A stretch of DNA of 55,599 nucleotides, the filler included, from Thermodesulfobacteriota bacterium (GTDB taxonomy: Bacteria > DASVDK01): NCBI GenBank assembly GCA_036381125.1. It is 3 parts of 3 records of this genome, joined end to end, with 100 filler letters (N's around TTAATTAATTAA, not from the genome) between each part and the next. Parts side by side here need not be neighbours in the genome. Positions count along the whole stretch, not along the records: positions 39,228 to 55,599 come from DASVDK010000381.1; 2 more parts are not named here. One strand, 5' to 3'. The notes beneath the pieces were generated by a model. That model did not search any database and had not been told where the DNA came from. It saw only the letters and a list, made by a program, of their open reading frames with translations. Shown here piece after piece: positions 34,747 to 55,275 of this stretch. Made by a program: the position numbers and the translations under genes. How positions within the stretch are numbered: position 1 is the first letter of the stretch; each line of letters starts with the position of its first letter.

Positions 34747-34836
34747 CGCGCCCTCCGCGAGCCGCGCCGGCGTCCCGCAACGCGCGTGCCGCACGCCCCG
34801 CCCCGAACCGACCGACCGAAACGGATCACCGGGCGT

Positions 34837-36462
34837 TCACGGCGCGGAGGCGCCGTCGGCGTCCGCGCGCCGACCGGTTCCCCACGTGAACACGGCGAGG
34901 CTCGCGGCCGCCGGCGTGTCGGCCTCGTCGAGGCGGCGCGTGACGTAGGCGGCGACGCCGGGCGCGAACGGCGGAGGGTAGACGAGGAGCCGGTGACGCT
35001 CGAGCACGACGAGTCCCCGTGCGTGCCGCTCGACGAGCGCGGCGAGGTCCTCCACCCCGGCGAACGCCGCGACGCCGGTGGTGTAGGAGCGGAACCGGAC
35101 GCCGTGCGGCGTCACCTCGACGTCCCGGTCGGCGGCGTGCGGGCCCTGGTTCGCGTGCAGCAGCCGGCCGTCGACGCGGCCGAAGTAGTAGAAGGCGAGG
35201 TGATCGGCGGGGCTCACCACGGCGGCGTCGGCGAACCCGTGGTCGCGCGCCCAGGCCGCCGCCTCCCGCCACTGGGCGAAGGCCGCGCCCGAGAACTCGC
35301 CGTACGCCTTGAGCCGGTTCGCCTGCGCCGCCGCGAACCAGGGCGAGGCGCGGACGACCACGAGGAGCGTGACGACGACGAGCGCCGTCGCCAGCGGCCG
35401 CGCCAGCGCGGGCCAGGGGAGGCGGGCGGCCAGGTTGCCGGCAAGGCGCGCGTGCAGGAGCCGCGCGGCGAGCCGTCCCCCCTCGCCGAGGAGCACGAAG
35501 AGGCCGGGGAGGAAGACGAAGAGATAGCGCTCCGACTGGGTCGGCACGACGGCCGACAGGAGCAGGAACGGAGCCCAGACGAGGAGCGCGGCGTAGAGGC
35601 CGGCACGCGGGCGCGTCACGACGACCGCGAGCGTCGCCGCCGGCGCGAGGAACCAGAGGTAATCGTAGGTCCCCGCCAGGTACAGATGGTAGAACTTCGG
35701 GTCCCACGCCTCGGCCGGGAACCAGGGCAGCCGCGTGAGACCGGTCTCGAGCGTGGCCAGCGCGCGGTCCGGCGCGGCCAGGAGGACGAGCGCCGCGACC
35801 GACGCCCCGGCGGCGAGCTCGCGCGCCTCGGGCGCCCGCCGCACGGCGCGCCAGCCGCCGGTCGCGGCAAGCCAGGCGGCGACGATGCCGAGATGGAGCC
35901 CGAGGGGCGCGAGGAGGAGGTACGCCTCCGCGTGAAGGCGCGCGGTGAGGAGCGTGAGGCCGACGCCGGTCGCGAGCCACGTCGCGCGGCCGGACGGGCG
36001 AACCGCGAGGAGCCCTCGCGCGGTGGCCGCCGCGGCCAGGACGACCAGGAGCTGCGCCCAGGCGTACATGCGGACGAACCGCGACATGGCCACGGCGTCC
36101 GGCGAGCAGGCGAGCAGCGCCGCGGCCACGAGGCCGGCCGTCGGCCCGAAGAGGACCGTCCCCAGCAGGAAGACGGCCGGGATGGCCAGGACGCCGGCCA
36201 CGACGCTCGGCACGCGGGCGGCCGCCTCGCTCTCGCCCAGGTGCTCGAACGCGAAGGCGACGGCGCGGGTGACGGGGAGCGCGCGTCGATACGGCTCGCC
36301 GGACGGCAGCAGCGGCGCCCCGGTCGCGGCGAGCCCCTTCGCGGCCAGCACGTGCAGGACCTCGTCGTGCGAGAAGCTCCGCTGACCGAGGCGGTCGGCC
36401 CTCAGGAAGAGCCCACCGAGGACCAGGACGGCGAGCCACGCTACCAGGACGGACCGGCGCAC
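34837..36462 (-). CDS. GT39/PMT/ArnT-like membrane glycosyltransferase
   Basis: LFLRADRLGQRSFSHDE, LGESEAAARVPSV, SRFVRMY and ERY; multiple TM helices. GTG start inferred. Confidence 0.82.
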   Translation of the reverse strand: MRRSVLVAWLAVLVLGGLFLRADRLGQRSFSHDEVLHVLAAKGLAATGAPLLPSGEPYRRALPVTRAVAFAFEHLGESEAAARVPSVVAGVLAIPAVFLLGTVLFGPTAGLVAAALLACSPDAVAMSRFVRMYAWAQLLVVLAAAATARGLLAVRPSGRATWLATGVGLTLLTARLHAEAYLLLAPLGLHLGIVAAWLAATGGWRAVRRAPEARELAAGASVAALVLLAAPDRALATLETGLTRLPWFPAEAWDPKFYHLYLAGTYDYLWFLAPAATLAVVVTRPRAGLYAALLVWAPFLLLSAVVPTQSERYLFVFLPGLFVLLGEGGRLAARLLHARLAGNLAARLPWPALARPLATALVVVTLLVVVRASPWFAAAQANRLKAYGEFSGAAFAQWREAAAWARDHGFADAAVVSPADHLAFYYFGRVDGRLLHANQGPHAADRDVEVTPHGVRFRSYTTGVAAFAGVEDLAALVERHARGLVVLERHRLLVYPPPFAPGVAAYVTRRLDEADTPAAASLAVFTWGTGRRADADGASAP

Positions 36463-36503
36463 ACCCGGCAGGCAGGCAACTTCCGCGCCGGATACCGAGC
36501 GGA

Positions 36504-36541
36504 GGCTACACGACGCTGCGTTGGCTACACGACGTTGCGTT
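36504..36541. repeat. 19-bp tandem duplication of a gene 3' end
   Basis: GGCTACACGACGCTGCGTT directly followed by GGCTACACGACGTTGCGTT (one mismatch). Confidence 0.8.
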
Positions 36542-37688
36542 CGGCGGGTGTGCGACCGCGGGAGAAGCGCTCGTACGCGAGGGGGGAGAGATCGATCGTG
36601 TGCGCGCGGCCGTCGAGGATCGTCTCGGCCAGGAGGAGCCCGACCGCCGGCGCGTGCTGGAAGCCGTGCCCGCTGAAGCCGTTCGCGAGGAGGAAGCCCT
36701 CGACGCCGGGAACCGGGCCGATGATGGGGTGGGCGTCGGGGGAGACCTCGTAGAGACCGGCCCACGCGCGGGCGATGGTCGCCTCGGCGAGGGGAGGGTA
36801 CCGCTCGAGCGCGGTCTCGAGCACGGCGTACTGGAACTCGGGGTCGACGCTCGTGTCGAACGACGGCGGCTCGTCCCGGCCCATCCCCATGAGGATGCCG
36901 CCGCTCTCGCGGTGGAAATAGAAGGTGGTGGCGAAGTCGATGACCATCGTGGCGCGCGCCGGGGCACCGGCGAAGGGCCGCGTCGTGAACACGTGGCGCC
37001 GCACCGGCTCGACCGGCACCGCCACCCCCGCCATCCGGCCGACCTCGGCCGCCCAGGGGCCGGCGCAGTTGACGACCCACCGCGCCTCGACCGGGCCGGC
37101 CGCGGTCTCGACGCCGCGCACCCGCCCGCCGGCCACCCGGACGCCGGTCACCGCCACGCCGGTCTCGACGCGGACGCCCAGGCGCCGCGCGGCATCCGCG
37201 TAGCCCTGCGTCAACCCGTGCGGGTCGGCGATGCCGTCCTTCGCGCAGTAGGTGGCCCCGAGAACGTCGTCCACGACGAGGCCCGGCACGAGCGCCCCCG
37301 CCTCGGCCGCGGTCAGCGTCTCCACCGGGACCCCCAGGGCGCGCTGCAACTCGGCGTTGCGGCGGAACTCCGCCCAGTCGGCCTCGCGCGTCAGGAGAAA
37401 GAGGTACCCGTCCTGATGGAAGTCGAGGGGCGCCCCTACCTCCTCCTCGAAGCGCTCGATCGCCCGGATCGAGAGCTTGGACAGCTCGATGTTGACCGGC
37501 GAGGAGAACTGGTGCCGGACCCCGCCGGCGCACCGGCCCGTGGACCCGGTGCCGAGGAGGCCCTCCCGCTCGAGGAGGAGCACGTCCCGGCACCCGCGCC
37601 GGGCGAGATGCCAGGCGAGACTCGCGCCCATGGCCCCGCCGCCGACGATGGCGACCTCGACCCCGGCAGGCAACGTCTTCGTGGACAT
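36525..37688 (-). CDS. FAD-dependent oxidoreductase (DAO / sarcosine oxidase beta-like)
   Basis: Motifs IVGGGAMG, GSTGRCAGGVR, VVNCAGPWA, WAGLYEVSPDAHPIIG and GFSGHGF. Confidence 0.9.
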   Translation of the reverse strand: MSTKTLPAGVEVAIVGGGAMGASLAWHLARRGCRDVLLLEREGLLGTGSTGRCAGGVRHQFSSPVNIELSKLSIRAIERFEEEVGAPLDFHQDGYLFLLTREADWAEFRRNAELQRALGVPVETLTAAEAGALVPGLVVDDVLGATYCAKDGIADPHGLTQGYADAARRLGVRVETGVAVTGVRVAGGRVRGVETAAGPVEARWVVNCAGPWAAEVGRMAGVAVPVEPVRRHVFTTRPFAGAPARATMVIDFATTFYFHRESGGILMGMGRDEPPSFDTSVDPEFQYAVLETALERYPPLAEATIARAWAGLYEVSPDAHPIIGPVPGVEGFLLANGFSGHGFQHAPAVGLLLAETILDGRAHTIDLSPLAYERFSRGRTPAERNVV

Positions 37689-37719
37689 GGGAGCGATGGT
37701 ACCGCTATACTCGGCCCAC

Positions 37720-38709
37720 ATGAGCCAGCAGACGTACGACATCGCCGTCATCGGCGGTGGTCCCACCGGCCTCTTTGGACTCTTCTATGCCGGCCTGCGT
37801 GGGATGAAGGCGATCCTGTTCGACAGCCTCCCGGAACTCGGGGGCCAGCTCACCACCCTCTACCCCGAGAAGCTCGTCTACGACATGCCGGGCTTCCCCG
37901 AGATCCTCGCCCGCGACCTCGCCGCGGCGATGGTCAAGCAGGCGACCCGCTTCAACCCGGACATCCACACGAGCGAGCAGGTCCAGAAGGTGGAGAAGAT
38001 CGGCGAGCGCGACTTCCGCCTGACCACCCCCCGCGGCACCTACTCGGCCCGGTCGGTCCTCGTGGCCGGCGGTGTCGGGTCGTTCACGCCCAAGAAGCTC
38101 GCCATCAACCTCGACCACTACGAGGGCAAGGGGCTCTACTACTTCGTCAAGGACACGAGCGAGTTCCGGAACAGGCGGGTGCTCATCGTGGGCGGCGGCG
38201 ACTCGGCGCTCGACTGGGCCCTCCACCTCGAGCACGTCTGCCAGGTGAACCTCATCCACCGGCGAGGCGAGTTCCGCGGCCACGAGGAGTCGGCGAAGAA
38301 GGTGCTCGCGTCGACCTGCACGGTGCGGCTCTTCCACGAGGTGAAGGAGGTCCACGGCAACGGGCGCGTCGAGGCGGTGACGATCTTCGACAACCGCACC
38401 AAGGCGGAGACCCGGCTCGACGTCGACGCGCTGCTCCTCAACCTCGGCTTCGCCGCCAACCTCGGCCCGATCAAGGACTGGGGGCTCGAGCTGGCGGGCA
38501 AGTCGATCAAGGTGGACGGCCACTTCCAGACGAACATCCCGGGCATCTTCGCCGCCGGCGACATCATCGAGTACCCCGACCGCGAGAACATCACGCTCAT
38601 CGCCACCGGCGCCGCCGACGCGGCCGTGGCGGTGAACTACGCCAAGGCCTACATCGACCCCGGCGCCAAGGTCACCCCCGGGCACTCGTCCGGCCGCACC
38701 GACCTCTGA
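37720..38709 (+). CDS. Ferredoxin--NADP+ reductase, TrxR-like (YumC type)
   Basis: Motifs IIGGGPTGLF-like N-terminus, GGQL..LYPEK.VYD.PGFP, GGGDSALDWA and HRR..FRGHE; no CxxC; ends PGHSS. Confidence 0.9.
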   Translation: MSQQTYDIAVIGGGPTGLFGLFYAGLRGMKAILFDSLPELGGQLTTLYPEKLVYDMPGFPEILARDLAAAMVKQATRFNPDIHTSEQVQKVEKIGERDFRLTTPRGTYSARSVLVAGGVGSFTPKKLAINLDHYEGKGLYYFVKDTSEFRNRRVLIVGGGDSALDWALHLEHVCQVNLIHRRGEFRGHEESAKKVLASTCTVRLFHEVKEVHGNGRVEAVTIFDNRTKAETRLDVDALLLNLGFAANLGPIKDWGLELAGKSIKVDGHFQTNIPGIFAAGDIIEYPDRENITLIATGAADAAVAVNYAKAYIDPGAKVTPGHSSGRTDL

Positions 38710-38711
38710 TG

Positions 38712-38769
38712 GGCGTCAGGCCTTCACCTTTTCCGGGCGATACCGTGGAAAACGGAAAGGGCTGACCCC
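38712..38769. repeat. REP-like repeat, inverted pair
   Basis: Degenerate forward copy GGCGTCAGGCCTTCACCTTTTCC and inverted copy TGGAAAACGGAAAGGGCTGACCCC fill the intergenic gap. Confidence 0.8.
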
Positions 38770-39127
38770 ATGAGGGTTGCGGTGGTGGGAGCGGGCGGCG
38801 TCGGGAGCGCCGCGGCGCGTCACCTGGCGAAGGCCGGGCACGAGGTCCTGCTCGTCGAGCAGTTCGAGGTCGACCACGACCGCGGCTCGTCCTACGGCGA
38901 CTCGCGGGTCACCCGCCTCACCTACCACGAGCCGATCTACACCGCGATGATGGTGGAGGCCTACCGCCTCTGGGAGGCGCTGCAGGCCGAGGCGGACGAG
39001 CTGCTCCAGACCCGCTGCGGCATCCTGGTCTTCGGCAAGCCGACTCACCCCGAGATCCTCGGCACCATCCGATCGCTCGAGGCCAACGGCGTCCCGTACG
39101 AGCGGCTCGACGCCGCCGAGGTCGCCC
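38770..39127 (+). CDS. Monomeric sarcosine oxidase / SolA-like flavoprotein, 3'-truncated
   Basis: VAVVGAGGVGSAAA.HLA and EQF...HDRGSSYGDSRVTR; ends at the contig join. Confidence 0.82.
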
Positions 39128-39227
39128 NNNNNNNNNNNNNNNNNNNNNNNNNNNNNNNNNNNNNNNNNNNNTTAATTAATTAANNNNNNNNNNNNNNNNN
39201 NNNNNNNNNNNNNNNNNNNNNNNNNNN
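39128..39227. other. Artificial contig linker
   Basis: N44-TTAATTAATTAA-N44. Confidence 0.98.
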
Positions 39228-39386
39228 GGGGAGCACGAGGCGCCCGTCCGCCTCGATCTCGTCCGCGCCGCGGGCCGGGAGCGACGGTCCCAGCGCGGCC
39301 ACGCGGCCGCCAGAGATCCCGATGTCCACGACCTCTCCCGACTCGAGCCTGGCGTTCCGCAGGACGAGGTCGTGCCGTCCAGGCAT
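39228..39386 (-). CDS. Metal-dependent amidohydrolase (cytosine deaminase/YahJ/AtzC-like), N-terminal fragment
   Basis: DLVLRNARL...VDIGISGGRVAAL...EIEADGRLVLP is the typical beta-sandwich lead-in to PGxxxxHxH. ATG is coupled to the carbamate kinase stop. Confidence 0.7.
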
Positions 39387-40354
39387 CACGGGTCGCGGGC
39401 GAGCCGGGTCCCGCCCTTCCCCTCGAGGGCGTCACGGACCCGCTCGAGCGAGGTGATGATCACCGTGTCCCCTCCCCCCTCCAGGTACTGCACCGCGGCC
39501 CGGATCTTCGGCGCCATGCTCCCCTCGGCGAACTGCCCGGCCTCGAGGTGGGCCTTCGCCTCCGCGACGGAGAGGCGCGGCACCGGCCGCTCGGCCGGCG
39601 TGCCGAAGTCGAGCGCCACGCTGTCGACGCCGGTGAGGTTGAGGTACAGGCCGGCGCCGAGGCCGAGGGCGAGGAGCGCGCCGGTCAGGTCCTTGTCGAT
39701 CACGGCGGCCACGCCCCGGTACCGGCCGTCCGCCTGCCGCGTCACGGGGATGCCGCCGCCGCCGGCCGCGATGGGGACGACGCCGGCCGCGACCAGATGG
39801 CGCACCGCCTCGAGCTCGACGATCGCCTTCGGCGGCGGCGACGGGACGACGCGGCGGTGGCCCCGCCCGGCGTCGTCCCGGAACTCCCACCCGGTCCGGC
39901 TGGCGATCCGCTCGGCCTCCTCCGGCGTGTAGAAGGGCCCGACCGGCTTCGACGGGTGCCGAAAGGCCGGGTCGTCCGCGTCGACCTCCACCTGCGTGAC
40001 GACCGAGGCCACGGGCGCCGGGACGCCGGCCGCGAGGAGGGCGTTGGCGAGGCTCTGCTGGATCATGTAGCCCATCCCCCCCTGCGAGTCGGCGACGCTG
40101 ACGTCCATCGGCATGGCGGGGACCACGGTGCTCGCCATGGCCATGCGGATGAGGATGTTGCCGATGACCGGCCCGTTCCCATGCGTGAGCACGAGGCGGT
40201 TGCCGCGCGTGGCCATCCAGGCGAGGTGCTCGCAGGTCCGCCGCAGGATCTCGAACTGCTCCTCGGCCGTTCCGCGGATCCCCTTCGGGTAGGTCGCGTT
40301 GCCGCCCAGCGCCACGACGGTCAGCTGCGGGTCAGTGCGCATCGGCTGTAACAT
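39386..40354 (-). CDS. arcC: Carbamate kinase
   Basis: Motifs VVALGGNA, THGNGP, SQGGMGY, PSKPVGPFY, RRVVPSP.P, GGGGIPV, AVIDKD and GSMAPK. Start 40354 or 40342. Confidence 0.95.
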   Translation of the reverse strand: MLQPMRTDPQLTVVALGGNATYPKGIRGTAEEQFEILRRTCEHLAWMATRGNRLVLTHGNGPVIGNILIRMAMASTVVPAMPMDVSVADSQGGMGYMIQQSLANALLAAGVPAPVASVVTQVEVDADDPAFRHPSKPVGPFYTPEEAERIASRTGWEFRDDAGRGHRRVVPSPPPKAIVELEAVRHLVAAGVVPIAAGGGGIPVTRQADGRYRGVAAVIDKDLTGALLALGLGAGLYLNLTGVDSVALDFGTPAERPVPRLSVAEAKAHLEAGQFAEGSMAPKIRAAVQYLEGGGDTVIITSLERVRDALEGKGGTRLARDP

Positions 40355-40358
40355 GCCG

Positions 40359-41468
40359 TCAGGCCCTCGCCACGACCGCCACCGGGCCGCCCCCGGCCGG
40401 GCCCTGGTGCTCCGATCCTCCGGATACGTAGACCATCGGGTCACCGACGATCGAGGCGACGACGGCGCCGACCACCGCCCGCGCGTGCCGCGTGTTGTTG
40501 ATGTCGGAGTCGTTCAGCATCGTGTGCCGGCGTCCCCGGACGTAGCCGCTCGGATCGGCCTCCGCCTTGGCGAAGACGTTCACGATCCGCGCCGCGTCGT
40601 CCGGGTGCACGGTCCCCTCGACGCGCAGGCCGGCCTCGCGGAGCGCCTGCCGTACGGCGTCGCCGTCGATCGCGTCCCTCATGACGGCGTGGCTGACCGT
40701 GAGGTCGCTCGAGGAGGCCTCCGAGTTCCCCATGAGGATGATCTCGCAGTTCATCAGCTCCACGCCGGCCGACGTGGACGCGACGCCGGAGTAGAGCCCC
40801 CAGTCCTTGCAGATCACCTCGTCCGACAGCTTCGCCTCGGCGATCTCACCGAGCGCGAGCCCCACGCCGAGGGCCGAGGCCCCGCGCGAGAACCCCATGG
40901 ACTCGTAGGTATCGGTCGTCGCCACCGTCCCGCCCCGGCGGTGGGCCTCCTCGATCCGCTCCGACGTGAGGAGCGGGCACTTGATCTGCACGAAGTGCAC
41001 GTCGCCGGGCGAATCGACCTCCGCGTCGCGCATCGCCTCCCTGACCGTCCTCGCCACCTCGAGCACCTGCGGCATCCGGCCGATCTCCTCGGGCCTGAAC
41101 AGGCGGGTGTGCGCGACGCCGATCGCGAGCCGCTTGCCGCGCCCCCTCGCTCCGCCGCCCGCGTCCTTCCTCCGCGCGAAGACGGTGGCGTGCGGGCTCA
41201 GGACCCCCTCGGTCCCGCCGGACATGACGAACGCGACCCGCCGCGCCACCTCGTCGCGGGACACCCCGAGGACCTCCGAGAGGAACACCTGGAACGCGAG
41301 GACGGCGTAGCCCCGGGTGAAGTCGTTCACGCAGCCGTTGCCTTCCGTCTTGGCGAGGATCGCGACGATCTCGTCGGCCCTGACGTCGCCGCGGTCGAGG
41401 AGCGCCTTGAGGGTCGAGACGTCGCCCGGCCCGGCCATCGGGATCCTCGCGACCTGAACTGTCGTCAT
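40359..41468 (-). CDS. atzD: Cyanuric acid amidohydrolase / barbiturase family ring-opening amidohydrolase
   Basis: Motifs [55 protein letters not shown] and [15 protein letters not shown]. Start MTTVQ overlaps the upstream stop. Confidence 0.93.
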
Positions 41469-42925
41469 CGCTTCTGCTCCTCGGCAAGCCGGTCCGCGCC
41501 GACCGCGTCGGCGAGCGCCAGCATCGCCTCCTCGAAACAGGACATCGGGGCTCGCACGATGCCGGCCCCGATCTGCCCCACGCCCGCCTCCCGGTGCGCG
41601 ATTCCGGTGTTGATCACGGGCCTGATCCCCGTATCGACGACCGCGCGCAGGTCGATCCCGGTCGGGGTGCCGGAGAAGTCCAGCGGCGGCAGCGAGAACT
41701 TCGCGTTGCGGGCCAGGGTGATCTCGTACATCTCGCGCGTGTACGCCAGGGCGTCGTCGGGGGTGCCGCCGACGAACTGCACCATCGCGGGCGCGGCCCC
41801 CATGGCGAAGCCGCCGAACCCGGCGGTCTCGGTGATCGCGCTGTCGCCGAGGTCCGGGTTCGCGTCCGCCTCCGAGTAGCCGGAGAAGTAGAGCCCCTGC
41901 GGCGTCGGTGCCGGGGCCGTGAACCACCGGTCGCCGAGCCCGCTCACGCGGATGCCGAACTCGACGCCGTTGCGGGTCATCGCGGTCACGAGGCTGCTGC
42001 CCGCGACCCCGTGCGCCGCGTCGAGGCTTGCCTTGCAGGCGGCCATCGAGAGGTTCAGGAAGAAGTGGTTGTTGCCGTCCACGAAGGCGAGGACCTCCTC
42101 GACGTGGCCCGTGTCGAGGCCGGACCGCAGGAGCGCGGTCGCGAGGGTTCGGAAGAGCAAGGAGGTGGCGGCCACGTTCCGGTTGTGGACGTCGTCCCCC
42201 ATCTGGAGCGCCTGGGCCATGATCGGCGCGAGGCGCAGGCCGCCCTCGATCGTGGCGAGGGCCCGCTGCAGGGCCGGCGCGAGCCGGCGCTCGATCCACC
42301 GGAGCCGGTCGATCACTTCGGGGCCGTAGGCGCCGAACCGGAGCACCTTGCCGAGCCCCTCGTTCAGGTTGCTGTAGGCCGTGTTGCCGCTGGTCGTGTT
42401 GCGGACCACGAAGAGCGGCATCGACGGCGAGATGACCCCTGCCATGGGGCCGACGGCCGAGAAGTGGTGGCAGGCGTCGAAGCGGATCCCGCCGCTCGCC
42501 GCGAGCCGCTGGGCCTCCTCGACGGACGAGGCCCAGCCCTCGTAGAGGACCGCGCCGGTGACCGCGCCGCGCATGGGCCCGCACATCCGCTCCCACGCGA
42601 TGGGCGGCCCCGCATGGAGGATCGTCCGCCCGAGGTCGGGCCACACCTCGGCCGCCCGTCCGACGCCCACGAGCACCGGCTGCGCCTCGAGGAGGCGGCC
42701 GACGGCGTCGCGGTTGGCCGCGTCCACCCGCGAGCCGGCAGCGTCCGGGTCGTCGGGGTCGCCGGCGAGGAGCGCGAGCGTCCACGCCGTCCGCGGCTCC
42801 CCCTCGCCGGGCGGCCGCCAGTCCACGTGGTACACCGGCGCGCCGGCCGCGCGCACGGCGTCGGTGAACGCCTCCACGCCGATGTTGATGACCGAGGGTT
42901 CGCGTTCGAGCAGCCCGGCGCTCAT
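41465..42925 (-). CDS. DUF1116 protein (YahG/YlbE; oxamate carbamoyltransferase AllG family)
   Basis: Motifs [54 protein letters not shown] and INTGIAH...GQIGAG. Confidence 0.92.
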
Positions 42926-44502
42926 CGTCCCGCCTCCCCGGGGCCGGCGCCCCGTGTCGCAATGGCGACCGCCGCCCGGGCCGCGGCGGCGTTGCTCGGC
43001 AGGAGGAGGACTCCGGCTTCGCGCAGGCGCGCCTCCTGCGCGGAGAGCCGCTGCGGGTCCCCCTCGGTGCCGCAGACCGACGCCACGACGGAGAGGTGGC
43101 GCCCTTCCCGCTCCGCGAGCGCCCGCGCCTCGCGCACCGCCGGGACCAGCGCGCCGGCGGGATCGGGGTGCGCGCCGTAGCCGAGCACGACGTCGAGCAG
43201 GACGACGGCGGTGGCCGGATCGCGCGCCTCGCGGCGCAGGCGTTCCACGCGGTACCGGAAGTCGATCATCGGGTGCGGCCGGCCGACCGTGAACTCGTCG
43301 GTCCCCATGTCGACGGCCGTGTGCTCCCGGCTCTCGTCGGGGTCGCCGAGCCGCCGCGCCGCGTCGAGCGGGACGTTGGAGTAGGCGTCGATACCCCGCT
43401 CGCGCCAGACGACCTGCGCCTCGGTGCAGAGGGTCCCGCCGGAGAAGAGGCCGCGGATGTAGCGCTGACCCCGGCCGAGCCGGGCAGCCTCCGCCCGCAC
43501 GCGTTCGGCGTCTGGCAGGGGCGCGGCCTCGCCCGGCCCCGGCGCCTCGCCCCGTGCCAGGGCGACGCCGGCCGCCGCCGCGTCCTCGAGCGTCACGGCC
43601 GGCACGGCGCCCGCCCGTCGCACGGGCTCCGGGTCGCCCCCGAGGAACAGGACCACGACCGGCTTCTCGCAGGTCCCGACCAGGCCCAGCATCTTCGCGG
43701 CCACGGCGGGGGCCGGCGGCTTGGAGACGAGGACGATCACGCGCGTCGCCGGGTCGGCCCGCAGCGCCTCGAAGCCCTGCTGCATGGTCGCCCCGCCGAC
43801 CGGCGCCGAGACGTCGTTGCTCCCCGTGCCGATGCCGTGCGAGATGCCCTCGCCCTGCCGGTCGATCAGGCAGCTCACCTCCTGCAGGCCGGTGCCGGCC
43901 GCGGCCACGAGGCCGACGCCGCCGCGCCTGACGACGTTGGCGAAGCCGAGCGGGACCCCGCCGATGATGGCCGTCCCGCAGTCGGGCCCCATGACGAGGA
44001 GCCCCTTGCGCCGGGCGAGGGCCTTGAGGTGCACCTCCTGCTCGACCGGGACGTTGTTGCTGAAGAGGAACACGTGCAGCCCGCGGCGGAGCGCCTTGAG
44101 CGCCTCGGCGCCGGCGTACGCCCCGGGCGTCGAGACGAGGACCAGGTTCGCGTCGGCCAGGCGCCGCAGCGCCGTTGCCAGCGCCCGCGCGGGCCGCTCC
44201 TCAGGCGCCGCGCCGCCGCGGGGGGCCTCCTCGCCCGCGAGCATCGCCTCGACGCGTCCCGACGCGTCCGCGAGCGCCTGTTCGGACTCTCCCTCGAGGA
44301 CCACGACGAGGTCGTCGGGGCCGGCCGCCTGCGCGTCGGCGGTAAGCTGTCCGGCCTCCTCGAGGATCGCCTTGTTCGCCGCCGTGCCCATCACCAGCGC
44401 CGCGCGGCGCACGCCCGCGAGCGCGGCGGCCGCCTCGGAGATCCGCATGAGGGCCACCGAGTCCTTGTAGAGGCCCGGCTTCACGATGGTCGTCACCGGC
44501 AT
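42922..44502 (-). CDS. fdrA: FdrA/YahF acyl-CoA synthetase-like protein (AllF family)
   Basis: Motifs [51 protein letters not shown] and [21 protein letters not shown] before ATG 44502. Confidence 0.93.
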
Positions 44503-44548
44503 CGGCACGTCTCCTTTCGCCGCGGTCGGCCGGCTGCCCCGCGGCCCC

Positions 44549-45874
44549 TCATCGGATGGCCGTCACGATGGCGGCGAGGACGATCGTCACGACGAGGGCC
44601 GCCGGCATGTATGGAAGGTTGTTCCGGATGACGCGCACGATCTCCGTCTGGAATCCGTGTGCCGTGGCGGCGACGTTGATCTGCACCGGGCTGATCATGG
44701 CCCCCTGGGCGACCGCGATGCCGACGAAGCCGAAGGCCCACACCGGCACGCCGACCGCGGCAAGGACCGGGATGACGAGGGCGTCGATCGCCACGGTGTA
44801 GGCCGCCGACGGGATCGCGATGAGGAACGCCGCGACCAGGGCCACCGCGGTGACGATGCGGAGCGGGGCGAGGCCGACGAACCCGGCGATCGTCGAGAAG
44901 GTGCCGATCTCCGCGAGGAGGTTGATGAAGCCGAGGAAGAGGCCCACCAGGAACAGGTACCGGAGGATCGTGAGGCCGCCGTCGATGAACATCTCCCCGA
45001 TGCGGTTCGGGCTCAGCTTGAGGGCGACCGCGGCAACCGCGAGGACCCAGAGCGGGGTGAGCGCCGGCGAGAAGATCGGCTTGCCGACGAGCCGGTTGAC
45101 GAACGGCCCGAGGAGGATGATCGCCAGCAGCACGAAGAACGGCGACGAGCGCCGCCAGGGCCCTCCCACGACCTCCGGCGGCTCGGCCTGCGCCTCGGCG
45201 ACCGCCGCCTTGAGCCCGGCGGGAACGGCCTCGGCGGGTGCGGCGCTCGGGAGGAGGGGCTCGATCGTGCCCGCCAGCCGCCGGCGGCGGACCCCCCACC
45301 AGGCGAGCACCACGCCGATCAGCCAGAATGCGATGGTGTACGGCCGCATGAAGGCCGCGTAGTCGACCGGGCTGAGCTGCATCTGCTGCGAGATGTACGC
45401 GCTCTCGGCCGAGGCCGGCGACGTGGCCCACGACGCGCCGGACACGATGGACATCCCGGCGACGAGCTGCGGGACGAAGCCGACGACGGTGGCGACCAGG
45501 GGGGCGGTCACGAGCGTGTTGGCCGCGCCGATCCCCGCGACGTACGTCGCGAGCGCCTGCACGAGCGTCATCGCCCCTGCCACGAGTTCGAGCCTGTCGC
45601 CGAAGCGCCGCTGGATCAGCTCGAGGATGGCGCGGGTCGAACCCGCCTTCGCGAGGACCATGGCCGTCGCGGCGAACATCAGGACGGACGTGATCCCGAG
45701 GATCTGCGTGACCCCCTTGAGGAACAGCTCGGTGACCGTGGCCAGGTCGAGGCCGCCGATGATCACGGCCGCGGCCCCTCCCACGAGCCCGGCGACGAGG
45801 ATGTGCGCTCTGAAGGGGGGGAGAAGCATGAGGAGGATCAGGATCAGCGGCAAAACCTTGAGGAACTCTTCCAT
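44549..45874 (-). CDS. Secondary transporter (IT superfamily; CitMHS/GntP-like)
   Basis: About 12 hydrophobic segments with internal duplication (WATSP / AMISP); GAGGGAG RBS; first gene of the operon. Confidence 0.75.
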   Translation of the reverse strand: MEEFLKVLPLILILLMLLPPFRAHILVAGLVGGAAAVIIGGLDLATVTELFLKGVTQILGITSVLMFAATAMVLAKAGSTRAILELIQRRFGDRLELVAGAMTLVQALATYVAGIGAANTLVTAPLVATVVGFVPQLVAGMSIVSGASWATSPASAESAYISQQMQLSPVDYAAFMRPYTIAFWLIGVVLAWWGVRRRRLAGTIEPLLPSAAPAEAVPAGLKAAVAEAQAEPPEVVGGPWRRSSPFFVLLAIILLGPFVNRLVGKPIFSPALTPLWVLAVAAVALKLSPNRIGEMFIDGGLTILRYLFLVGLFLGFINLLAEIGTFSTIAGFVGLAPLRIVTAVALVAAFLIAIPSAAYTVAIDALVIPVLAAVGVPVWAFGFVGIAVAQGAMISPVQINVAATAHGFQTEIVRVIRNNLPYMPAALVVTIVLAAIVTAIR

Positions 45875-45980
45875 CAGGCGTTCTCCCTCGGATGCTCCGG
45901 ATCGCTCGCAGAGCCGTGGAGCCCGATCGTCCCCACGGCGTGAGCCCGCGCCGGATTCCTGGCGATTCGAGTGGCCGTCG

Positions 45981-45996
45981 TGCAACGCCGGTGCCA
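45981..45996 (-). promoter_or_regulatory. Sigma54 (-24/-12) promoter of the transporter-fdrA-atzD operon
   Basis: Minus strand TGGCACCGGCGTTGCA matches TGGCAC-N5-TTGCA, about 105 nt upstream of ATG 45874. Confidence 0.8.
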
Positions 45997-46224
45997 CCGT
46001 TCCGTGCCCGGAAGAGGCCCGTCCTGCGTGGGAGAATCGTCTCGGGCCGAGACAGCGCCGCCCCAGACGGGACGGCCATGCCTCACCGGAAGTCGGCTGC
46101 CGAGCGGCGCCCCGCTCCGGGGTCCGGCGCATCCAGCCGGTGGTACGGGACGCGCTGGCGTACCGCGACGAGGCGACACCGGGGCCGGACGCGCAGCGGC
46201 TCGATCCAGCAAGGGGCTGAGGAG

Positions 46225-47196
46225 GTGGGCTCGCGCCAGATCGCCGTCCATCGGATCAGTACGGAGGCAACGGAGCGTCTCCGGTCATCGGCCGGCCGGA
46301 TCGGAACCGTGCACTCGGCCTACGCGCGAACGATCAACCTCGAGATCGCGGGTGGCCGCCTCGTCAGCCTCCACGGCCCGGGGCCCGTCCTGTCGCCCTT
46401 CGGCCTCGAGTGCGCGGAGAGGCTCCCCTTCTCCGCCGCCTCGACCGGACGGGCGGTGTGGAGCGACGGCCGTGCCCTGTGGGTGGAGGGCTCGGACGCG
46501 CGGCTCGGGCTCCACGGCGCCGCGCGGTGGGACCCGGCCCTGCCGACGAGCCGCCGCGCCGACGCGGACGCGGCCGCGTCGCGCCTCCGGGCGATTGCGT
46601 CGGCCGCGCGGGACGACCCGGGTGCCGCGGGGCGCGGCCTGCTGCCGCTCCTGCCAAGGCTCCTCGGCCTCGAGACATGCGCGGCCGCCGGCACCCCCCC
46701 GTGGTCGCCCGTGTGCGAGCGTGCTCTCCCGGCGCTCGAGCGGCTGATCGAGGGCGGGCGGACGGGCACGGTGTCGGCGCTCCTCGACGCCGCGGAGACG
46801 CTGCTCGGCCTCGGTCCGGGACTCACCCCGTCGGGCGACGATGCGCTCGTCGGCTACGTCGCGGCGCTCTGGACCGCGGGGCCGTCGGGGCGCGCCCTCG
46901 TGCGCGACGTCGCCGCGCCCCTCGCCGAGCTTGCCGCCGCGAGAACCACCAGGCTGAGCCGGGAGATCCTCGGCTGCGCCGCGCGCGGTCTGGCCGCCGA
47001 ACCGCTGGGGCGCCTCGCCCGCCGCGGCGACGTGGCGTCGGTGGCGGGGCTCCTGGCCTGCGGGGCGACCTCGGGGGGCGACTGCCTCGTCGGCTGGGCG
47101 GCCGGCCTCCAGGCGTCGCCCGCCCGAGGCGCCGTCACCTCGCGCCGGTCCACGCGATGCACCGGCACGCGCCGGGACTCCCGCGATGGTCCCTGA
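46225..47196 (+). CDS. DUF2877 protein (YahE/YlbF; AllH family)
   Basis: Motifs G.VHSAY.RTINL, LLGLGPGLTPSGDD.LVG, TTRLS and GATSG.D. GTG start uncertain. Confidence 0.85.
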   Translation: MGSRQIAVHRISTEATERLRSSAGRIGTVHSAYARTINLEIAGGRLVSLHGPGPVLSPFGLECAERLPFSAASTGRAVWSDGRALWVEGSDARLGLHGAARWDPALPTSRRADADAAASRLRAIASAARDDPGAAGRGLLPLLPRLLGLETCAAAGTPPWSPVCERALPALERLIEGGRTGTVSALLDAAETLLGLGPGLTPSGDDALVGYVAALWTAGPSGRALVRDVAAPLAELAAARTTRLSREILGCAARGLAAEPLGRLARRGDVASVAGLLACGATSGGDCLVGWAAGLQASPARGAVTSRRSTRCTGTRRDSRDGP

Positions 47197-47210
47197 CAGG
47201 AGGGCGCGTC

Positions 47211-48437
47211 ATGCGGTGGGGACGGCTGGCAGGCGGGCTGGCGGTGGCCGGGGTGGCCGGCTGGTACGCACGCACGGGACGGTATGCGAGCGTTCGGTGG
47301 GATCACCCGGGCCGACCGCCCTACGACGAGTCCCGCGGCGTGCGAGCGGGCGACCTGGAGGTGGTGCACGAGTTCCAGGGCGCCATGCCGACCGGGGTCA
47401 CGGTGTCGCGCCAGGGGCGGGTCTTCGTGAACTACCCCCGCTGGGAGGACCCGGTCGACTTCACCGTGGCGGAGCTTCGCGAGGGGCGCGAGGAGCCCTT
47501 CCCCGACGCGGCGAGCCAGGGCGACGCCTCGCCCGACCAGCTCTTCTCGGTGCAGAGCGTCGTCGTCGACCCGGCCGATCGGCTCTGGGCGCTCGACACC
47601 GGCACCGTCGACCAGGCCCTCCGTGGGCGCGAGTGGGCCAAGCTCGTCGGCATCGACCTGGCCACCAACCGGATCGTCAAGACGATCCGCTTCCCGCCGG
47701 AGGTGGTGCACGGAGCGACCTACCTCAACGACGTCCGCTTCGACCTGCGCCGCGGCGACGAGGGCATGGCCTTCATCACCGACTCGTCGTCGTCCGGGCC
47801 GAACGGCCTCATCGTCGTCGACCTCGCCTCCGGGCGGAGCTGGCGGAAGCTGAACGACCACCCCTCGGTGCGGCCGGACCCGGCGTTCTTCGCCGTGCTC
47901 GACGGCGGCCCCCTGCTGCTGCGCCCGAAGGATCGATTCCTGCCGAAGCGGGCCAGGACCGGCTCGGACGGGATCGCCATCGCGGCCGGCGGCACACGGC
48001 TCTTCTACTGCCCGCTCTCGAGCCGCAGCCTGTACAGCGTGAGCGTCGACGCCCTGGCCGACGAGGGCGCCTCCGACGCCGACGTGGCGCGGACGATCGA
48101 GCGCGAGGACCGGCGCTTCGCCTCCGACGGGCTCGAGGCCGACCTGCAGGGCCGGATCTACCTCACCGACTGGGAGCACAACGCGATCGTCGTGCGGACG
48201 CCCGAGGGGCGGTACGAGACGCTCGTGTGGGACCCGCGCCTCTGGTGGCCCGACACGCTCAGCCTCTCGGACGACGGCTACCTGTACGTCACCGCGAACC
48301 AGCTCCATCGCCAGGCGAAGTTCCACCGGGGCCGGGACCTCAGGCGGCGCCCCTTCCACCTCTTCCGCCTGCCGGTGAACGCCACGCCGGTGCGCCTCTC
48401 ACGCGAGGCGCCGCGCGCCGCGGCCGGAGGCACCTAG
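47211..48437 (+). CDS. Major royal jelly protein / Yellow family beta-propeller
   Basis: Motifs MPTGVTVS..GRVFVNYPRW, SVQSVVVD..DRLWALDTG, YLNDVRFD, GSDGIA and WPDTLS; AGGAGG RBS. Confidence 0.88.
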   Translation: MRWGRLAGGLAVAGVAGWYARTGRYASVRWDHPGRPPYDESRGVRAGDLEVVHEFQGAMPTGVTVSRQGRVFVNYPRWEDPVDFTVAELREGREEPFPDAASQGDASPDQLFSVQSVVVDPADRLWALDTGTVDQALRGREWAKLVGIDLATNRIVKTIRFPPEVVHGATYLNDVRFDLRRGDEGMAFITDSSSSGPNGLIVVDLASGRSWRKLNDHPSVRPDPAFFAVLDGGPLLLRPKDRFLPKRARTGSDGIAIAAGGTRLFYCPLSSRSLYSVSVDALADEGASDADVARTIEREDRRFASDGLEADLQGRIYLTDWEHNAIVVRTPEGRYETLVWDPRLWWPDTLSLSDDGYLYVTANQLHRQAKFHRGRDLRRRPFHLFRLPVNATPVRLSREAPRAAAGGT

Positions 48438-48465
48438 GCCGCGCCGGCGGGCGCGGCCGCGAGGC

Positions 48466-48501
48466 TTGACGCGCGCGCCATATCGTAATATATAAAGTTA
48501 C
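48466..48501 (+). promoter_or_regulatory. Leaderless promoter with overlapping Rrf2 operator
   Basis: TTGACG-N17-TATATA, then 7 nt to the ATG. Palindrome GTAA-N9-TTAC (48485-48501) covers the -10. Confidence 0.7.
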
Positions 48502-48954
48502 ATGAAGCGAAGCGGCCGGTTCGCCGTCGCCTTGCACGTCCTCGTCCATCTGGCCGAGTCGCCGGACGAGCCCGCGACGTCCGAGCATCTGGCCCGGTGC
48601 GCGCGGACCAACCCGGTCGTCGTCCGCCGGACCATGGCCGGGCTGCGCGAGGCCGGGCTCGTGACGTCGGCGCGCGGTCCCGGCGGCGGCTGGAGGCTCG
48701 CGCGCGACGCCGGGTCCGTCACCCTACGCGATGTGTACGCGGCCCTGGGCGAGAGGCTGCTCTTCGCGACCGGGAAGGCGCCGGTGAACCCGGGCTGCGT
48801 GGTCGAGCACGCGCTCACGGGCGCGCTCGACGACTTCTTTCGCCGCGCCGAGGCGACGCTGGCGGAGCGCTTCGGTCGCATCACCCTGGCCGACCTGTCG
48901 GCCGATATCGGCCGCCTGACGGCGCAACGCCGCGGGCGCAGGAAGGGAACGTAG
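48502..48954 (+). CDS. Rrf2 family transcriptional regulator (non-Fe-S, YwnA/HypR-like)
   Basis: Motifs [39 protein letters not shown] and NPGC. Confidence 0.92.
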   Translation: MKRSGRFAVALHVLVHLAESPDEPATSEHLARCARTNPVVVRRTMAGLREAGLVTSARGPGGGWRLARDAGSVTLRDVYAALGERLLFATGKAPVNPGCVVEHALTGALDDFFRRAEATLAERFGRITLADLSADIGRLTAQRRGRRKGT

Positions 48955-48955
48955 C

Positions 48956-49861
48956 ATGTCGCACGACGCCATCGTCGTCGGAGGGAGCTTCGCCGGCCTC
49001 TCGGCCGCCATGCACCTCGCGCGCGCCCGTCGTCGGGTCCTCGTGATCGATGCCGGGCGGCCGCGCAACCGCTTCGCGCGAGCCTCGCACGGGTTCCTGG
49101 GGCAGGACGGCCGGGCTCCCGCCGCGATCATCGAGGACGCCCGGGCGCAGGTTCTGGCCTACCCGACGGCCCGGCTCGTCCGGGGCGAGGCCACCCACGC
49201 GACCCCGACGGGGGACGGCTTCGAGGTCGCGCTCGCCTCGGGAGAGCGCGTGACCGCCTCCCGCCTGATCCTCGCCACCGGCGTCGAGGACGAGCTGCCC
49301 GACGTGCCCGGGCTCAAGGAGCGCTGGGGCGCGAGCGTCCTCCACTGCCCCTACTGTCACGGCTACGAGGTCGCGGGCGGGCGGCTCGGCGTGCTGGCCA
49401 CGGGCGCGATGGCGCTGCACCAGGCCATGCTCGTCCCCGATTGGGGGGAGGTGACGCTGTTCACCAACGGCGCGATCGAGCTGGACGACGGCCGGCGCGC
49501 GGCGTTGCGGGCGCGCGGCGTACGGATCGAGGCCGAGCCGGTCGAGGCGCTCGTGGGGGACACGCCCGCGCTCGCGGGGGTCAGGCTGCGAGGCGGCCGG
49601 TTCGTGCCGCTCGACGCCCTCTTCACGGCGTCCCGCACCAGGATGGCGAGCCCGCTGGCCGAGCAGCTCGGTTGCGCCTTCGAGGAGGGCCCGTTCGGCC
49701 CCGTCATCCGCACCGACGAGTTCAAGGAGACGAGCGTGCCGGGCGTCTACGCGGCGGGCGATGCCGCGCGCGCCCGTCACAACGCCACCTACGCGTCGGC
49801 GGACGGGGTGACGGCGGGCATCTTCGCCCATCAATCCCTGATCGTGCCGAGGCCTGCCTGA
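48956..49861 (+). CDS. Thioredoxin reductase-like NAD(P)/FAD oxidoreductase
   Basis: Motifs VVGGSFAGLSAA, ILATGV.D, HCPYCHGYE and PGVYAAGD. Confidence 0.9.
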   Translation: MSHDAIVVGGSFAGLSAAMHLARARRRVLVIDAGRPRNRFARASHGFLGQDGRAPAAIIEDARAQVLAYPTARLVRGEATHATPTGDGFEVALASGERVTASRLILATGVEDELPDVPGLKERWGASVLHCPYCHGYEVAGGRLGVLATGAMALHQAMLVPDWGEVTLFTNGAIELDDGRRAALRARGVRIEAEPVEALVGDTPALAGVRLRGGRFVPLDALFTASRTRMASPLAEQLGCAFEEGPFGPVIRTDEFKETSVPGVYAAGDAARARHNATYASADGVTAGIFAHQSLIVPRPA

Positions 49862-49873
49862 GGCGTCCCTGCC

Positions 49874-50275
49874 CTACGCCGCCCCGAGGAGGCGCGTGAC
49901 CGCCCCGTGCGCGAGCGTGACGGCCGGCTCGACCCCGAGCACGACCCGGTACCGGTGGCCGAGGCCGGGTGGGCCCTCGGCCGGTGCGACGAGCGCCCGC
50001 GCCTCCTCGCGCAGGGCGCGGATCTCGTCGGCCGTCACCGGATCGTCGGCATCGAGCGCCTCGTCGATGCGCACGACGAGCGTCGAGAGCGGCCGGAGCC
50101 AGGCGAACCAGGGGTGCTCGATCAGCATCTGGAGCATCTCGCCGGCCGAAACCGTCCGGCCGTGGTCGCGCTCGTACGTCGCGCGCTCGGCGTCGACGAG
50201 CGCCTTGTGCAGCCGCAGGAGCGCCTGCCGCAGGTCGCGGAGGGCGGTCGCGTCGTGGTCGACGTATCTTGACAT
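49874..50275 (-). CDS. Hypothetical helical protein
   Basis: LRQALLRLHKALVDAERATYE...PWFAWLRPLS; protein-like composition; GAGG upstream. Confidence 0.7.
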   Translation of the reverse strand: MSRYVDHDATALRDLRQALLRLHKALVDAERATYERDHGRTVSAGEMLQMLIEHPWFAWLRPLSTLVVRIDEALDADDPVTADEIRALREEARALVAPAEGPPGLGHRYRVVLGVEPAVTLAHGAVTRLLGAA

Positions 50276-50363
50276 GCCGCTCGCCCACCTCTCTGGTAGA
50301 CTGGTCAACGTTGCACGTCGTTGCATTGCACGTCTCGTTCCACGGGATCGGGGGGACCGGGAG

Positions 50364-51359: not shown

Positions 51360-51375
51360 CGCAGCCGCCCGGCGC

Positions 51376-52901: not shown

Positions 52902-52913
52902 GAGCAGTCCCCC

Positions 52914-54299: not shown

Positions 54300-54302
54300 C
54301 AG

Positions 54303-54472: not shown

Positions 54473-54481
54473 AGGATCGGC

Positions 54482-55123: not shown

Positions 55124-55275
55124 CACCTCGACCTCCTTTTCGAACGGCGCGTGGCGGTTCAGGATCTCGACCGTCGTCCGGGTAGGGCTGACGCCGGCGA
55201 GACGTGTCACGCCGGACGATAGTCGATCGCGGGGAGCCGGCATCTGCTATGTAAGAAATGGGGAGGAGGGGGTGC

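Follow-up and report, generated by a model that had tools for sequence, protein, structure and literature searches.

The DNA window analyzed here (the whole stretch of 55,599 nucleotides, filler included, from a Thermodesulfobacteriota bacterium, GenBank assembly GCA_036381125.1) encodes a predicted cyanuric acid hydrolase of the AtzD/TrzD family within an operon for homologs of the AllFGH carbamoyltransferase and a carbamate kinase. On balance, this operon probably, although far from certainly, encodes a non-classical route for cyanuric acid degradation, in which phosphorolysis by the AllFGH-like complex followed by carbamate kinase would yield ATP. A functional coupling of AtzD with the AllFGH-like genes is strongly supported by its recurrence across phyla, and the specific phosphorolytic mechanism is plausible by analogy with oxalurate degradation and from the gene context.

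Cyanuric acid is produced in very large amounts, in connection with pool disinfection and triazine herbicides. To our knowledge, every pathway described past the opening of its ring is hydrolytic and yields no energy in the form of ATP. The compound has been reported in Paramecium secretions and is said to be degraded under anoxic conditions (PMC12342508). Carbamoyl transfer to phosphate is known from Escherichia coli, whose AllFGH enzyme is described as converting oxalurate and phosphate into oxamate and carbamoyl phosphate, the latter being used by AllK to form ATP (PMC11326118, PMC9843812; Kim & Kim 2022, 2024). AllFGH is the only known enzyme built from FdrA, DUF1116, and DUF2877 proteins.

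Organization of the Operon

The window is composed of three contigs (1-27720, 27821-39127, and 39228-55599) linked by N/TTAATTAATTAA spacers (27721-27820 and 39128-39227), and genes flanking a spacer are not genomic neighbors. Its guanine-plus-cytosine content is 70-78%. The operon sits at the start of the third contig, the true end of which is at 39228, and comprises together with one divergent gene:

39228-39389, minus strand: cytosine-deaminase-like (YahJ-like) amidohydrolase, first 54 codons, cut by the contig end (NCBIfam PRK07572)
39386-40354, minus strand: carbamate kinase of the ArcC/YahI/AllK type (TIGR00746, PF00696)
40359-41468, minus strand: cyanuric acid amidohydrolase of the AtzD/TrzD family, predicted, 369 residues (PF09663, NF052395)
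41465-42925, minus strand: DUF1116/AllG-like subunit, 486 residues, Yah-type with an N-terminal extension (PF06545)
42922-44508, minus strand: FdrA/AllF-like subunit, 528 residues (NF004760, PF00549)
44549-45874, minus strand: ion-transporter-superfamily anion permease (DcuC/DctM-like), 441 residues (ESM Atlas features and structure)
about 46228-47196, plus strand: DUF2877/AllH-like subunit, divergent, start approximate (PF11392)

A previous inspection of the letters alone (the sequence-only reading) had described a minus-strand operon running from a transporter through fdrA, DUF1116, atzD, and carbamate kinase to a deaminase fragment, with a divergent DUF2877 gene. This operon is confirmed, each gene being found in its place and the DUF2877 gene matching PF11392 on the plus strand. 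The overlapping or near-abutting junctions claimed from fdrA onward are likewise borne out: allF/allG and allG/atzD overlap by 4 bases each (ATGA), the kinase ATG lies 4 bases past the AtzD stop, and the kinase stop overlaps the amidohydrolase start. The gap between permease and allF is 40 bases. Because the same F-G-AtzD order is found on an independent 3.2-kb contig (L001, 91-93% protein identity) and on a complete Binatia chromosome (L039), where the kinase and a full-length amidohydrolase follow, the gene order is not an assembly artifact.

The three subunit types and the carbamate kinase are all encoded together in the window. The FdrA/AllF-like protein reaches 484.6 bits against NF004760 (cut-off 433) and 127 bits against PF00549 (Ligase_CoA), matches also PF02629, and is 42% identical to YahF and 39% to E. 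coli FdrA/AllF. The GHxG phosphohistidine motif of succinyl-CoA synthetase was looked for in AllF and none was found; H412 is invariant across 77 AllF sequences. The AllG-like protein (PF06545, 328 bits) is 47% identical to YahG (477 residues) and 53% to E. coli AllG (415 residues), its residues 6-50 matching the C-terminal end of the FdrA model. The AllH-like protein, the start of which was set by comparison with homologs of 287-305 residues, scores 70 bits against PF11392 and is 37% identical to E. coli AllH over 112 residues. Finally, the kinase is 44% identical to E. coli YahI and 42% to AllK; it scores 358.3 bits against TIGR00746 (arcC, cut-off 358.25) on an open reading frame of 352 residues and 92 bits against PF00696 on a form of 322 residues, and its start is likely the ATG at 40354, not the GTG at 40444.

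A Predicted Cyanuric Acid Hydrolase

The window AtzD matches, over its full length, the equivalog NF052395 (559.7 bits, cut-off 360), TIGR02714 (552.9 bits), and PF09663 (538.8 bits). Its best matches in the PDB are TrzD (5t13, 512 bits), the Moorella cyanuric acid hydrolase (6bum, 509 bits), and AtzD (4bvq, 418 bits), and the nearest characterized enzymes are ~66-70% identical to it. The catalytic Ser-Lys dyads and the binding Arg and Glu residues of the crystallized Moorella enzyme have been named (PMC6557486), and 13 out of 13 of these active-site residues, namely three Ser-Lys dyads, three binding Arg and the partner Glu/Arg, are kept in the window protein (K40, R52, S83, E87, K163, R195, S233, E237, K301, R327, R330, S349, and E353, aligned with Moorella K40, R52, S83, E87, K161, R193, S231, E235, K299, R325, R328, S347, and E351).

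In a tree of AtzD proteins (quick IQ-TREE, LG+G4, with SH-aLRT, an approximate likelihood-ratio test, as sole support; 88 rows, L075 left out), the characterized Moorella enzyme (P0113) nests with a support of 100 among AtzDs from loci L137-L140, in which AllF and/or AllG (hereafter AllFG) are linked to atzD. The L137 protein is 96% identical to P0113, and the Moorella thermoacetica type strain is represented by orthologs 94-96% identical to its AtzD. Rows without AllFG that fall inside AllFG-rich clades are mostly on short contigs.

The homolog might act on a different ring, for instance that of parabanate, of barbiturate, or of a natural triazine or pyrimidine not yet known, the product of which (e.g., oxalurate or ureidomalonate) would then be the carbamoyltransferase substrate. 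The first two had been named as alternatives in the sequence-only reading. In favor of another ring, nucleobase permeases of the NCS2 type and purine-catabolism-type PucR regulators accompany the cluster (10/32 and 15/32 AllFG-linked loci, respectively), other AllFGH clusters of Bacillota pair with a PF04199 cyclase and xanthine-dehydrogenase-type enzymes, and two loci, L141 and L142, hold a divergent AtzD (417-425 bits). However, the window protein passes NF052395, barbiturase (5hwe) scores 300 bits against it, below the 509-512 bits of the cyanuric acid hydrolases, the Moorella active site is conserved, and the Moorella enzyme itself belongs to an AllFG-linked clade. In addition, barbiturate is described as a tight-binding competitive inhibitor of the Moorella enzyme and not as a substrate (PMC6557486). 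These data weaken both named alternatives and make a different ring improbable. Because the equivalog is passed and the best PDB matches, the 13 conserved residues and the inhibition by barbiturate point the same way, the window AtzD is treated as a cyanuric-acid-hydrolase-type enzyme, this activity being predicted from its sequence.

The divergent proteins of L141 (genome G153) and L142 (G251), two related genomes, sit on a long branch of the family. There, two tandem AllG paralogs are accompanied by the AtzD relative, carbamate kinase, YahJ-like and AllC-like amidohydrolases, and a second amidohydrolase; the substrate of this AtzD relative may be a different ring from cyanuric acid.

Recurrence of the AtzD-AllFG Linkage

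A scan with an alignment of 15 AtzD proteins, using one genome per species, gave 591 confirmed stretches, the best 80 of which were kept. AllF and/or AllG were found within 10 kb of AtzD in 32 of these 80 loci. As these 80 were the loci most similar to the query among the 591, leaning towards its relatives (and with L070 and L075 overlapping on one contig), this 40% linkage is not a family-wide frequency, which tempers what it can say for the proposed route. Linkage was seen in 19 of the 42 loci where AtzD is flanked by 8 kb or more on each side and in 13 of the 38 shorter ones. The 32 linked loci are distributed over 11 named phyla, two of them archaeal, and three unclassified genomes: Bacillota (14), Mycoplasmatota (3), Thermodesulfobacteriota (2), Pseudomonadota (2, Huaxiibacter and Casimicrobiaceae), Nitrososphaerota (2), and one each of Actinomycetota (Rubneribacter), Vulcanimicrobiota, Rokuibacteriota, Binatota, Chloroflexota, and Bathyarchaeota. 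Pseudomonadota account for 33 of the 48 loci without AllFG. The linkage is therefore no one-off arrangement, and the neighborhood of FdrA, DUF1116, DUF2877, and kinase genes which had been predicted around AtzD recurs.

Several genes accompany AtzD more often when AllFG is present. Carbamate kinase occurs in 23/32 AllFG-linked versus 2/48 other AtzD loci, AllH in 20/32 versus 0/48, the NCS2 nucleobase permease in 10/32 versus 0/48, and a PucR-type regulator in 15/32 versus 6/48. Gene order varies from F-G-AtzD-kinase-amidohydrolase (the window and Binatia) to AtzD-permease-NCS2-H-F-G-kinase (bacilli and clostridia), permease-H-F-G-AtzD-...-kinase (Moorella type), F-G-x-AtzD-kinase (Nitrososphaera), and G-AtzD-H-F (Bathyarchaeia). 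Because gene content is conserved while order is shuffled, the linkage appears to be under selection.

The distribution of the kinase also bears on the chemistry. The FdrA/DUF1116/DUF2877 proteins could form another type of enzyme, for instance an ATP- or CoA-dependent ligase or a hydrolase acting on the ring-opened product, the kinase then having a different role; FdrA does contain the CoA-ligase-type domains PF00549 and PF02629, a single member of the family has been characterized, and the AllG clades are diverse. Against this stands the above association of kinase and AllFG among AtzD loci, and the kinase is found in many AtzD-free AllFG loci too, which fits carbamoyl phosphate as the common product. 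We thus regard an unrelated activity as very improbable.

An even sample of 401 genomes from Bacillota, the phylum of Amphibacillus, supports the coupling independently of the choice of loci. AtzD was present in 10 genomes and AllG in 57, with both in 9 (Fisher's exact test, p = 1.2e-7). In 8 of these 9 genomes, the pair lies within 10 kb on one contig (coordinates read by eye), and in the remaining one on two small contigs.

Further evidence was obtained from a tree of AllG proteins (also quick IQ-TREE, LG+G4, SH-aLRT only; 96 rows, open reading frames below 330 residues or 150 bits being dropped). AtzD-linked AllGs are clustered on this tree, with 9 label changes compared to 31 with shuffled labels and none of 500 shuffles as low. 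The window AllG belongs to an 8-row clade with a support of 98, every member of which is AtzD-linked. E. coli AllG pairs, with a support of 100, with L113, the second AllG paralog of genome G001, the AtzD-linked copy of which is elsewhere in the tree. Since the E. coli-type and AtzD-linked copies sit apart, the two G001 proteins are distinct paralogs. E. coli YahG groups with L121, and the two together are sister to a large AtzD-linked clade of Bacillota and Mycoplasmatota (support 89); the window AllG is in the other half of the tree from both.

The L113 region has a further peculiarity, shared with genomes G105 and G012: open frames of 829-999 residues span the AllG match (L113 9279-12278 in G001), and no separate AllF was found in L113, the copy that groups with E. 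coli AllG. This suggests a fused AllF-AllG protein.

A variant was also observed in two related loci, one from Nitrospinota and one unclassified (L037 8418-11086 and L038 28-2428), where the kinase is 0.5 kb from AtzD and no AllF/AllG was seen within 10 kb. In their close relatives L046, L050, and L056, AllF-AllG lie 6-8 kb away, past a Bmp-type ATP-binding cassette (ABC) transporter.

Fate of the Ring-Opened Product

In the route which we favor, the permease would import cyanurate and AtzD would open the ring to give 1-carboxybiuret, which can be seen as oxalurate with an extra NH. The AllFGH-like complex would move the terminal carbamoyl group of carboxybiuret to phosphate, releasing carbamoyl phosphate and allophanate. 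Allophanate would be split likewise into carbamoyl phosphate and carbamate, or be hydrolyzed by AtzF in the few lineages that keep it. Carbamate kinase would finally convert carbamoyl phosphate and ADP into ATP, ammonia, and CO2. Where present, a BiuH-like hydrolase would return biuret, arising from spontaneous decarboxylation, to allophanate, and triuret would enter through TrtA-like enzymes. Each ring would provide one to two ATP, and AtzE, BiuH, and AtzF would not be needed. The true substrate may be carboxybiuret, allophanate, or both.

The distribution of the classical downstream enzymes is consistent with this scheme at the genome level. No AtzE, BiuH, or AtzF was found in the 55.6-kb window, the sole amidase of which is GatA (598 bits), in agreement with the earlier observation that the visible part has no biuret or allophanate hydrolase. 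We further compared, by matches above curated cut-offs, five cluster-bearing genomes (Amphibacillus sp., Enterococcus aquimarinus, Huaxiibacter chinensis, a Binatia chromosome, and Proteiniclasticum aestuarii) with five classical AtzD genomes (Bradyrhizobium, Variovorax, Paenibacillus, and two Uliginosibacterium). Allophanate hydrolase (AtzF) was found in 0/5 cluster-bearing and 5/5 classical genomes, and so was BiuH, apart from one in-cluster copy at 290 bits in the former set. Three other proteins were searched in the cluster-bearing genomes only: AtzE was in 0/5, urease alpha in 1/5, and ureidoglycolate dehydrogenase (AllD) in 1/5, the latter being on a different contig of Enterococcus aquimarinus (G002).

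The urease result is relevant to a variant of the scheme. Carboxybiuret is described as decarboxylating spontaneously to biuret (PMC6557486), and the AllFGH-like complex could phosphorolyze biuret into carbamoyl phosphate and urea, a possibility with which minimal clusters devoid of any other hydrolase would agree. With urease in only 1/5 cluster genomes, however, urea formation would cost two of the three nitrogens. Furthermore, hydrolysis of biuret in place of phosphorolysis is suggested by BiuH-like enzymes in five AllFG-linked AtzD loci and in three loci without AtzD, and biuret would be missing the carboxylate of oxalurate. Because four of the five cluster genomes are without urease, biuret is the less likely substrate, and we consider this variant unlikely.

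Several observations weigh against phosphorolysis of the AtzD product as a general explanation, in addition to the sampling of the loci mentioned above. Phosphorolysis of carboxybiuret, allophanate, or biuret rests on the oxalurate analogy and gene context. The amidohydrolase gene is cut at 39228 by the end of the window contig, and the contrast between 5 and 5 genomes is confounded with taxonomy. At the locus level, a true allophanate hydrolase (TIGR02713, 729 bits) adjoins AllF in L003 (Rokubacteria), and an AtzF-like amidase (NF006043, 535 bits, cut-off 487) lies between PucR and AllH in L043 (Lachnospiraceae). BiuH-like genes have about equal frequency in AllFG-linked and other loci (5/32 versus 9/48), and when AllFG and a nearby amidase were compared on the AtzD tree by an independent-pairs test, too few pairs were informative (p = 1). 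The AtzD-linked AllGs are not one clade, at least 5 of the 9 label changes being forced by well-supported branches. Lastly, 48 of the 57 Bacillota genomes with AllG are without AtzD, and most AllG clusters adjoin other enzymes. Because L003 and L043 keep such genes, the AllFGH-like complex is not a simple replacement of AtzF everywhere; these two loci fit the use of AtzF for allophanate in some lineages.

The anticorrelation with biuH, atzE, and atzF that the sequence-only reading had anticipated thus holds for the genomes compared (0/5 each, against 5/5 classical genomes for AtzF and BiuH), and is broken at the locus level by L003, L043, and the five BiuH-like genes. Its ATP-yielding interpretation fares similarly: co-localization, co-occurrence, the genome-level anticorrelation, and the type of AtzD lend it partial support, while the anticorrelation is not absolute.

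The isochorismatases of BiuH-like kind occur in the AtzD plus AllFG loci L006, L009, L014, L027, and L034. Five BiuH-like proteins were scored (from L006, L009, L014, and L104), with 284-322 bits against NF050097 (cut-off 370) and 111-136 bits against RutB. Such hydrolases connect AllG clusters to this chemistry a second time in the AtzD-free loci L104, L110, and L118, which have the order PucR-F-G-permease-isochorismatase-permease-H-kinase; the AllGs of L118 and L110 nest inside or beside AtzD-linked clades and that of L104 just outside one. A cupin beside AtzD (cluster c41) was examined as a decarboxylase of the TrtB/AtzH type and rejected, being a plain cupin found only in loci without AllFG.

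Relationship to Known Systems

As in E. coli allFGHK, the window combines the three subunit families with an adjacent carbamate kinase, and the presumed logic would be the same, from a ureide and phosphate to carbamoyl phosphate and ATP. In contrast to allFGHK, the window has a cyanuric acid hydrolase gene inside the operon, no allC, allD, or allE on its contig, and an AllG that lies outside the E. coli AllG clade. Homologs of E. coli-type allC/allD/allE are absent from the AtzD-linked loci listed, except for the AllC-like gene of L141 and L142. The domain boundary differs too, the window and Yah-type DUF1116 proteins carrying ~45 residues which are found at the C-terminus of E. coli FdrA. The position of the DUF2877 gene varies as well: it is divergent in the window, lies before the FdrA-type gene in the Yah and Bacillota clusters, and comes after allG in allFGHK. 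From the AllG paralog split, the presence of AllD, which forms oxalurate, in only 1/5 cluster genomes, and the lack of all-gene context, we infer that the AtzD-linked complex is probably not the oxalurate enzyme.

The architecture is closer to that of E. coli yahE-yahF-yahG-yahI-yahJ, which shares the DUF2877 protein, the FdrA type of 515-528 residues, the DUF1116 protein of 472-486 residues, the kinase, and then a cytosine-deaminase-like amidohydrolase. Unlike the window, the yah cluster is without AtzD and without a permease of the ion-transporter superfamily, and has no known substrate. Although YahG and its clade have the AtzD-linked AllGs of Bacillota as sister group, the window AllG belongs to a different AtzD-linked clade. 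Of the label "yahEFG-I-J/allFGHK-type" first given to the operon, the yah half is therefore the better description, the window AllG not falling into the E. coli AllG clade. The K-12 locus itself (yahE-yahJ, L081) matches the AtzD-linked clusters in architecture except that AtzD and the permease are missing, and a ureide of the biuret or allophanate kind is a lead for the substrate of this operon.

With the classical routes (AtzD-AtzEG-AtzH-AtzF in Pseudomonas sp. ADP; AtzD/TrzD-BiuH-AtzF in Rhizobium and others), the window shares the enzyme family of the first step, with its active site kept, but the downstream enzymes AtzE, BiuH, and AtzF were not found in its 55.6 kb.

In the literature, the closest to the proposed route is PMC12625717 (mSystems 2025), in which biuH/trtA are reported next to allFGHK in comammox Nitrospira and ammonia-oxidizing archaea, with no atzD found in its genomes, the genes being read as separate biuret and oxalurate pathways. 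The Bacillota loci L104, L110, and L118 resemble this collocation in that carbamoyltransferase and kinase genes adjoin enzymes of the triuret/biuret/cyanurate node. Unlike the genomes of that study, two Nitrososphaera contigs (L018 and L031) carry AtzD inside such clusters. A literature search covering few subscription papers and no supplements gave no earlier suggestion that cyanuric acid, carboxybiuret, allophanate, or biuret is degraded by phosphorolysis or with a gain of ATP.

Following the interpretation of PMC12625717, AtzD and AllFGHK could be two independent nitrogen-scavenging modules lying side by side, AllFGHK acting on purine-derived oxalurate and the AtzD product being hydrolyzed or lost. 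The allophanate hydrolase(-like) genes of L003 and L043 and the AllD encoded elsewhere in the Enterococcus aquimarinus genome (G002) agree with such a separation. By contrast, in the window atzD is inserted between allG and the kinase gene with overlapping or near-abutting junctions, and the linkage is seen in 11 named phyla with the genes in varying order. Moreover, AllD is above cut-off in 1/5 cluster genomes, AtzF, AtzE, and BiuH in 0/5, and G001 has a separate AllG paralog of the E. coli type. Two unconnected modules are hence very unlikely, and the proposed pathway would plausibly represent known enzyme types wired into a new pathway.

If this proposal is correct, nitrogen-cycle biochemistry would gain a new reaction and possibly a new fermentable substrate, and the substrate range of the AllFGH enzyme class would widen, with a lead for the orphan yah operon of E. 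coli. The proposal would also explain why cluster-bearing microbes, including close relatives of Moorella thermoacetica, retain a cyanuric acid hydrolase although the known downstream genes are missing, and would bear on how biuH and allFGHK genes are read in nitrifiers.

Transport and Accessory Enzymes

The permease encoded upstream of allF has no Pfam match above cut-off. In the ESM Atlas, it is close to DcuC/DctM clusters by features (0.97) and by structure (TM score 0.80). Its homologs are found in 21/32 AllFG-linked AtzD loci versus 2/48 others, and, among 60 regions around AllG from the Bacillota sample (the AtzD-linked copy of G245 and the contigs of G253 being left out), only in 4 of the 6 AtzD-linked ones (L137-L140). 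This protein is a candidate cyanurate importer.

The amidohydrolase fragment at the contig end has the cytosine deaminase PRK07572 as best NCBIfam match (30.3 bits on 54 residues) and is 51% identical over 57 residues to the full-length amidohydrolase of 433 residues at the same position in L039, which itself scores 298 bits against PRK07572, below the cut-off of 438. Judging from the family, and with low confidence, it would probably feed the pathway by deaminating an amino-triazine, such as ammelide, to cyanuric acid.

A second type of membrane protein, ~510-520 residues long and without a Pfam or NCBIfam family, is encoded beside the BiuH-like hydrolases, often twice (L104 5151-6710 and 7675-9234; L110; L118; L009 14640-16175; L008 7537-9081; L014 3427-4950). 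It falls into unnamed ESM Atlas clusters, with a structure near xanthine/uracil-type permeases (TM 0.94). It is a candidate biuret or triuret transporter family.

AllG Clusters Without AtzD

The commonest AtzD-free AllG type in Bacillota (35 fetched loci, within L083-L136) has the order PucR-H-F-G followed by a PF04199 "cyclase" hydrolase (e.g., L089 8582-9367 and 16595-18943; L093 7212-8075), often with molybdenum and FAD subunits of xanthine-dehydrogenase type, an NCS2 permease, and carbamate kinase. Such clusters may constitute another pathway of ring opening, phosphorolysis, and ATP formation, for an oxidized N-heterocycle. Because most Bacillota AllG clusters adjoin other enzymes and are without AtzD, the substrate range of the AllG family is wide, and the FdrA/DUF1116/DUF2877 plus kinase unit looks like a module combined with different hydrolases.

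A more general proposal can be advanced only tentatively, and may well prove too broad. Cyanuric acid, as well as biuret and triuret via BiuH/TrtA-like hydrolases, would serve many anaerobes and some archaea as a source of energy and nitrogen, a dedicated FdrA/DUF1116/DUF2877 branch removing carbamoyl units from the linear ureides one at a time as carbamoyl phosphate, with up to two ATP per ring formed by substrate-level phosphorylation. The modular design of a ring-opening hydrolase, an AllFGH-like phosphorolase, and a kinase would recur with other hydrolases, among them the PF04199 cyclase that accompanies xanthine-dehydrogenase-type enzymes in Bacillota, and E. coli yahEFG-I-J would have a ureide substrate.

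Neighboring Genes

Beyond the operon, the third contig also encodes a secreted protein related to the major royal jelly proteins (MRJP), an Rrf2 regulator, a flavin reductase, an NMT1-type ABC transporter, UbiD, a Cu/Zn superoxide dismutase, and a response regulator. The MRJP-like gene (47211-48437, plus strand) is directly 3' of AllH and is predicted to encode a membrane-anchored or secreted beta-propeller protein of the MRJP/yellow family (PF03022, 121 bits); it was rejected as a member of the module, with no counterpart in any of the 80 related AtzD loci. The Rrf2 regulator, the flavin reductase, and the binding protein, ATPase, and permease of the NMT1-type transporter follow at 48502-52901 (plus strand), 1.3-5.7 kb past AllH. 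The transporter (49.9-52.9 kb) was also considered as part of the system and set aside: its binding protein is 22-29% identical to those of transporters beside classical AtzD genes, a family-level likeness which makes for a weak link to cyanurate uptake.

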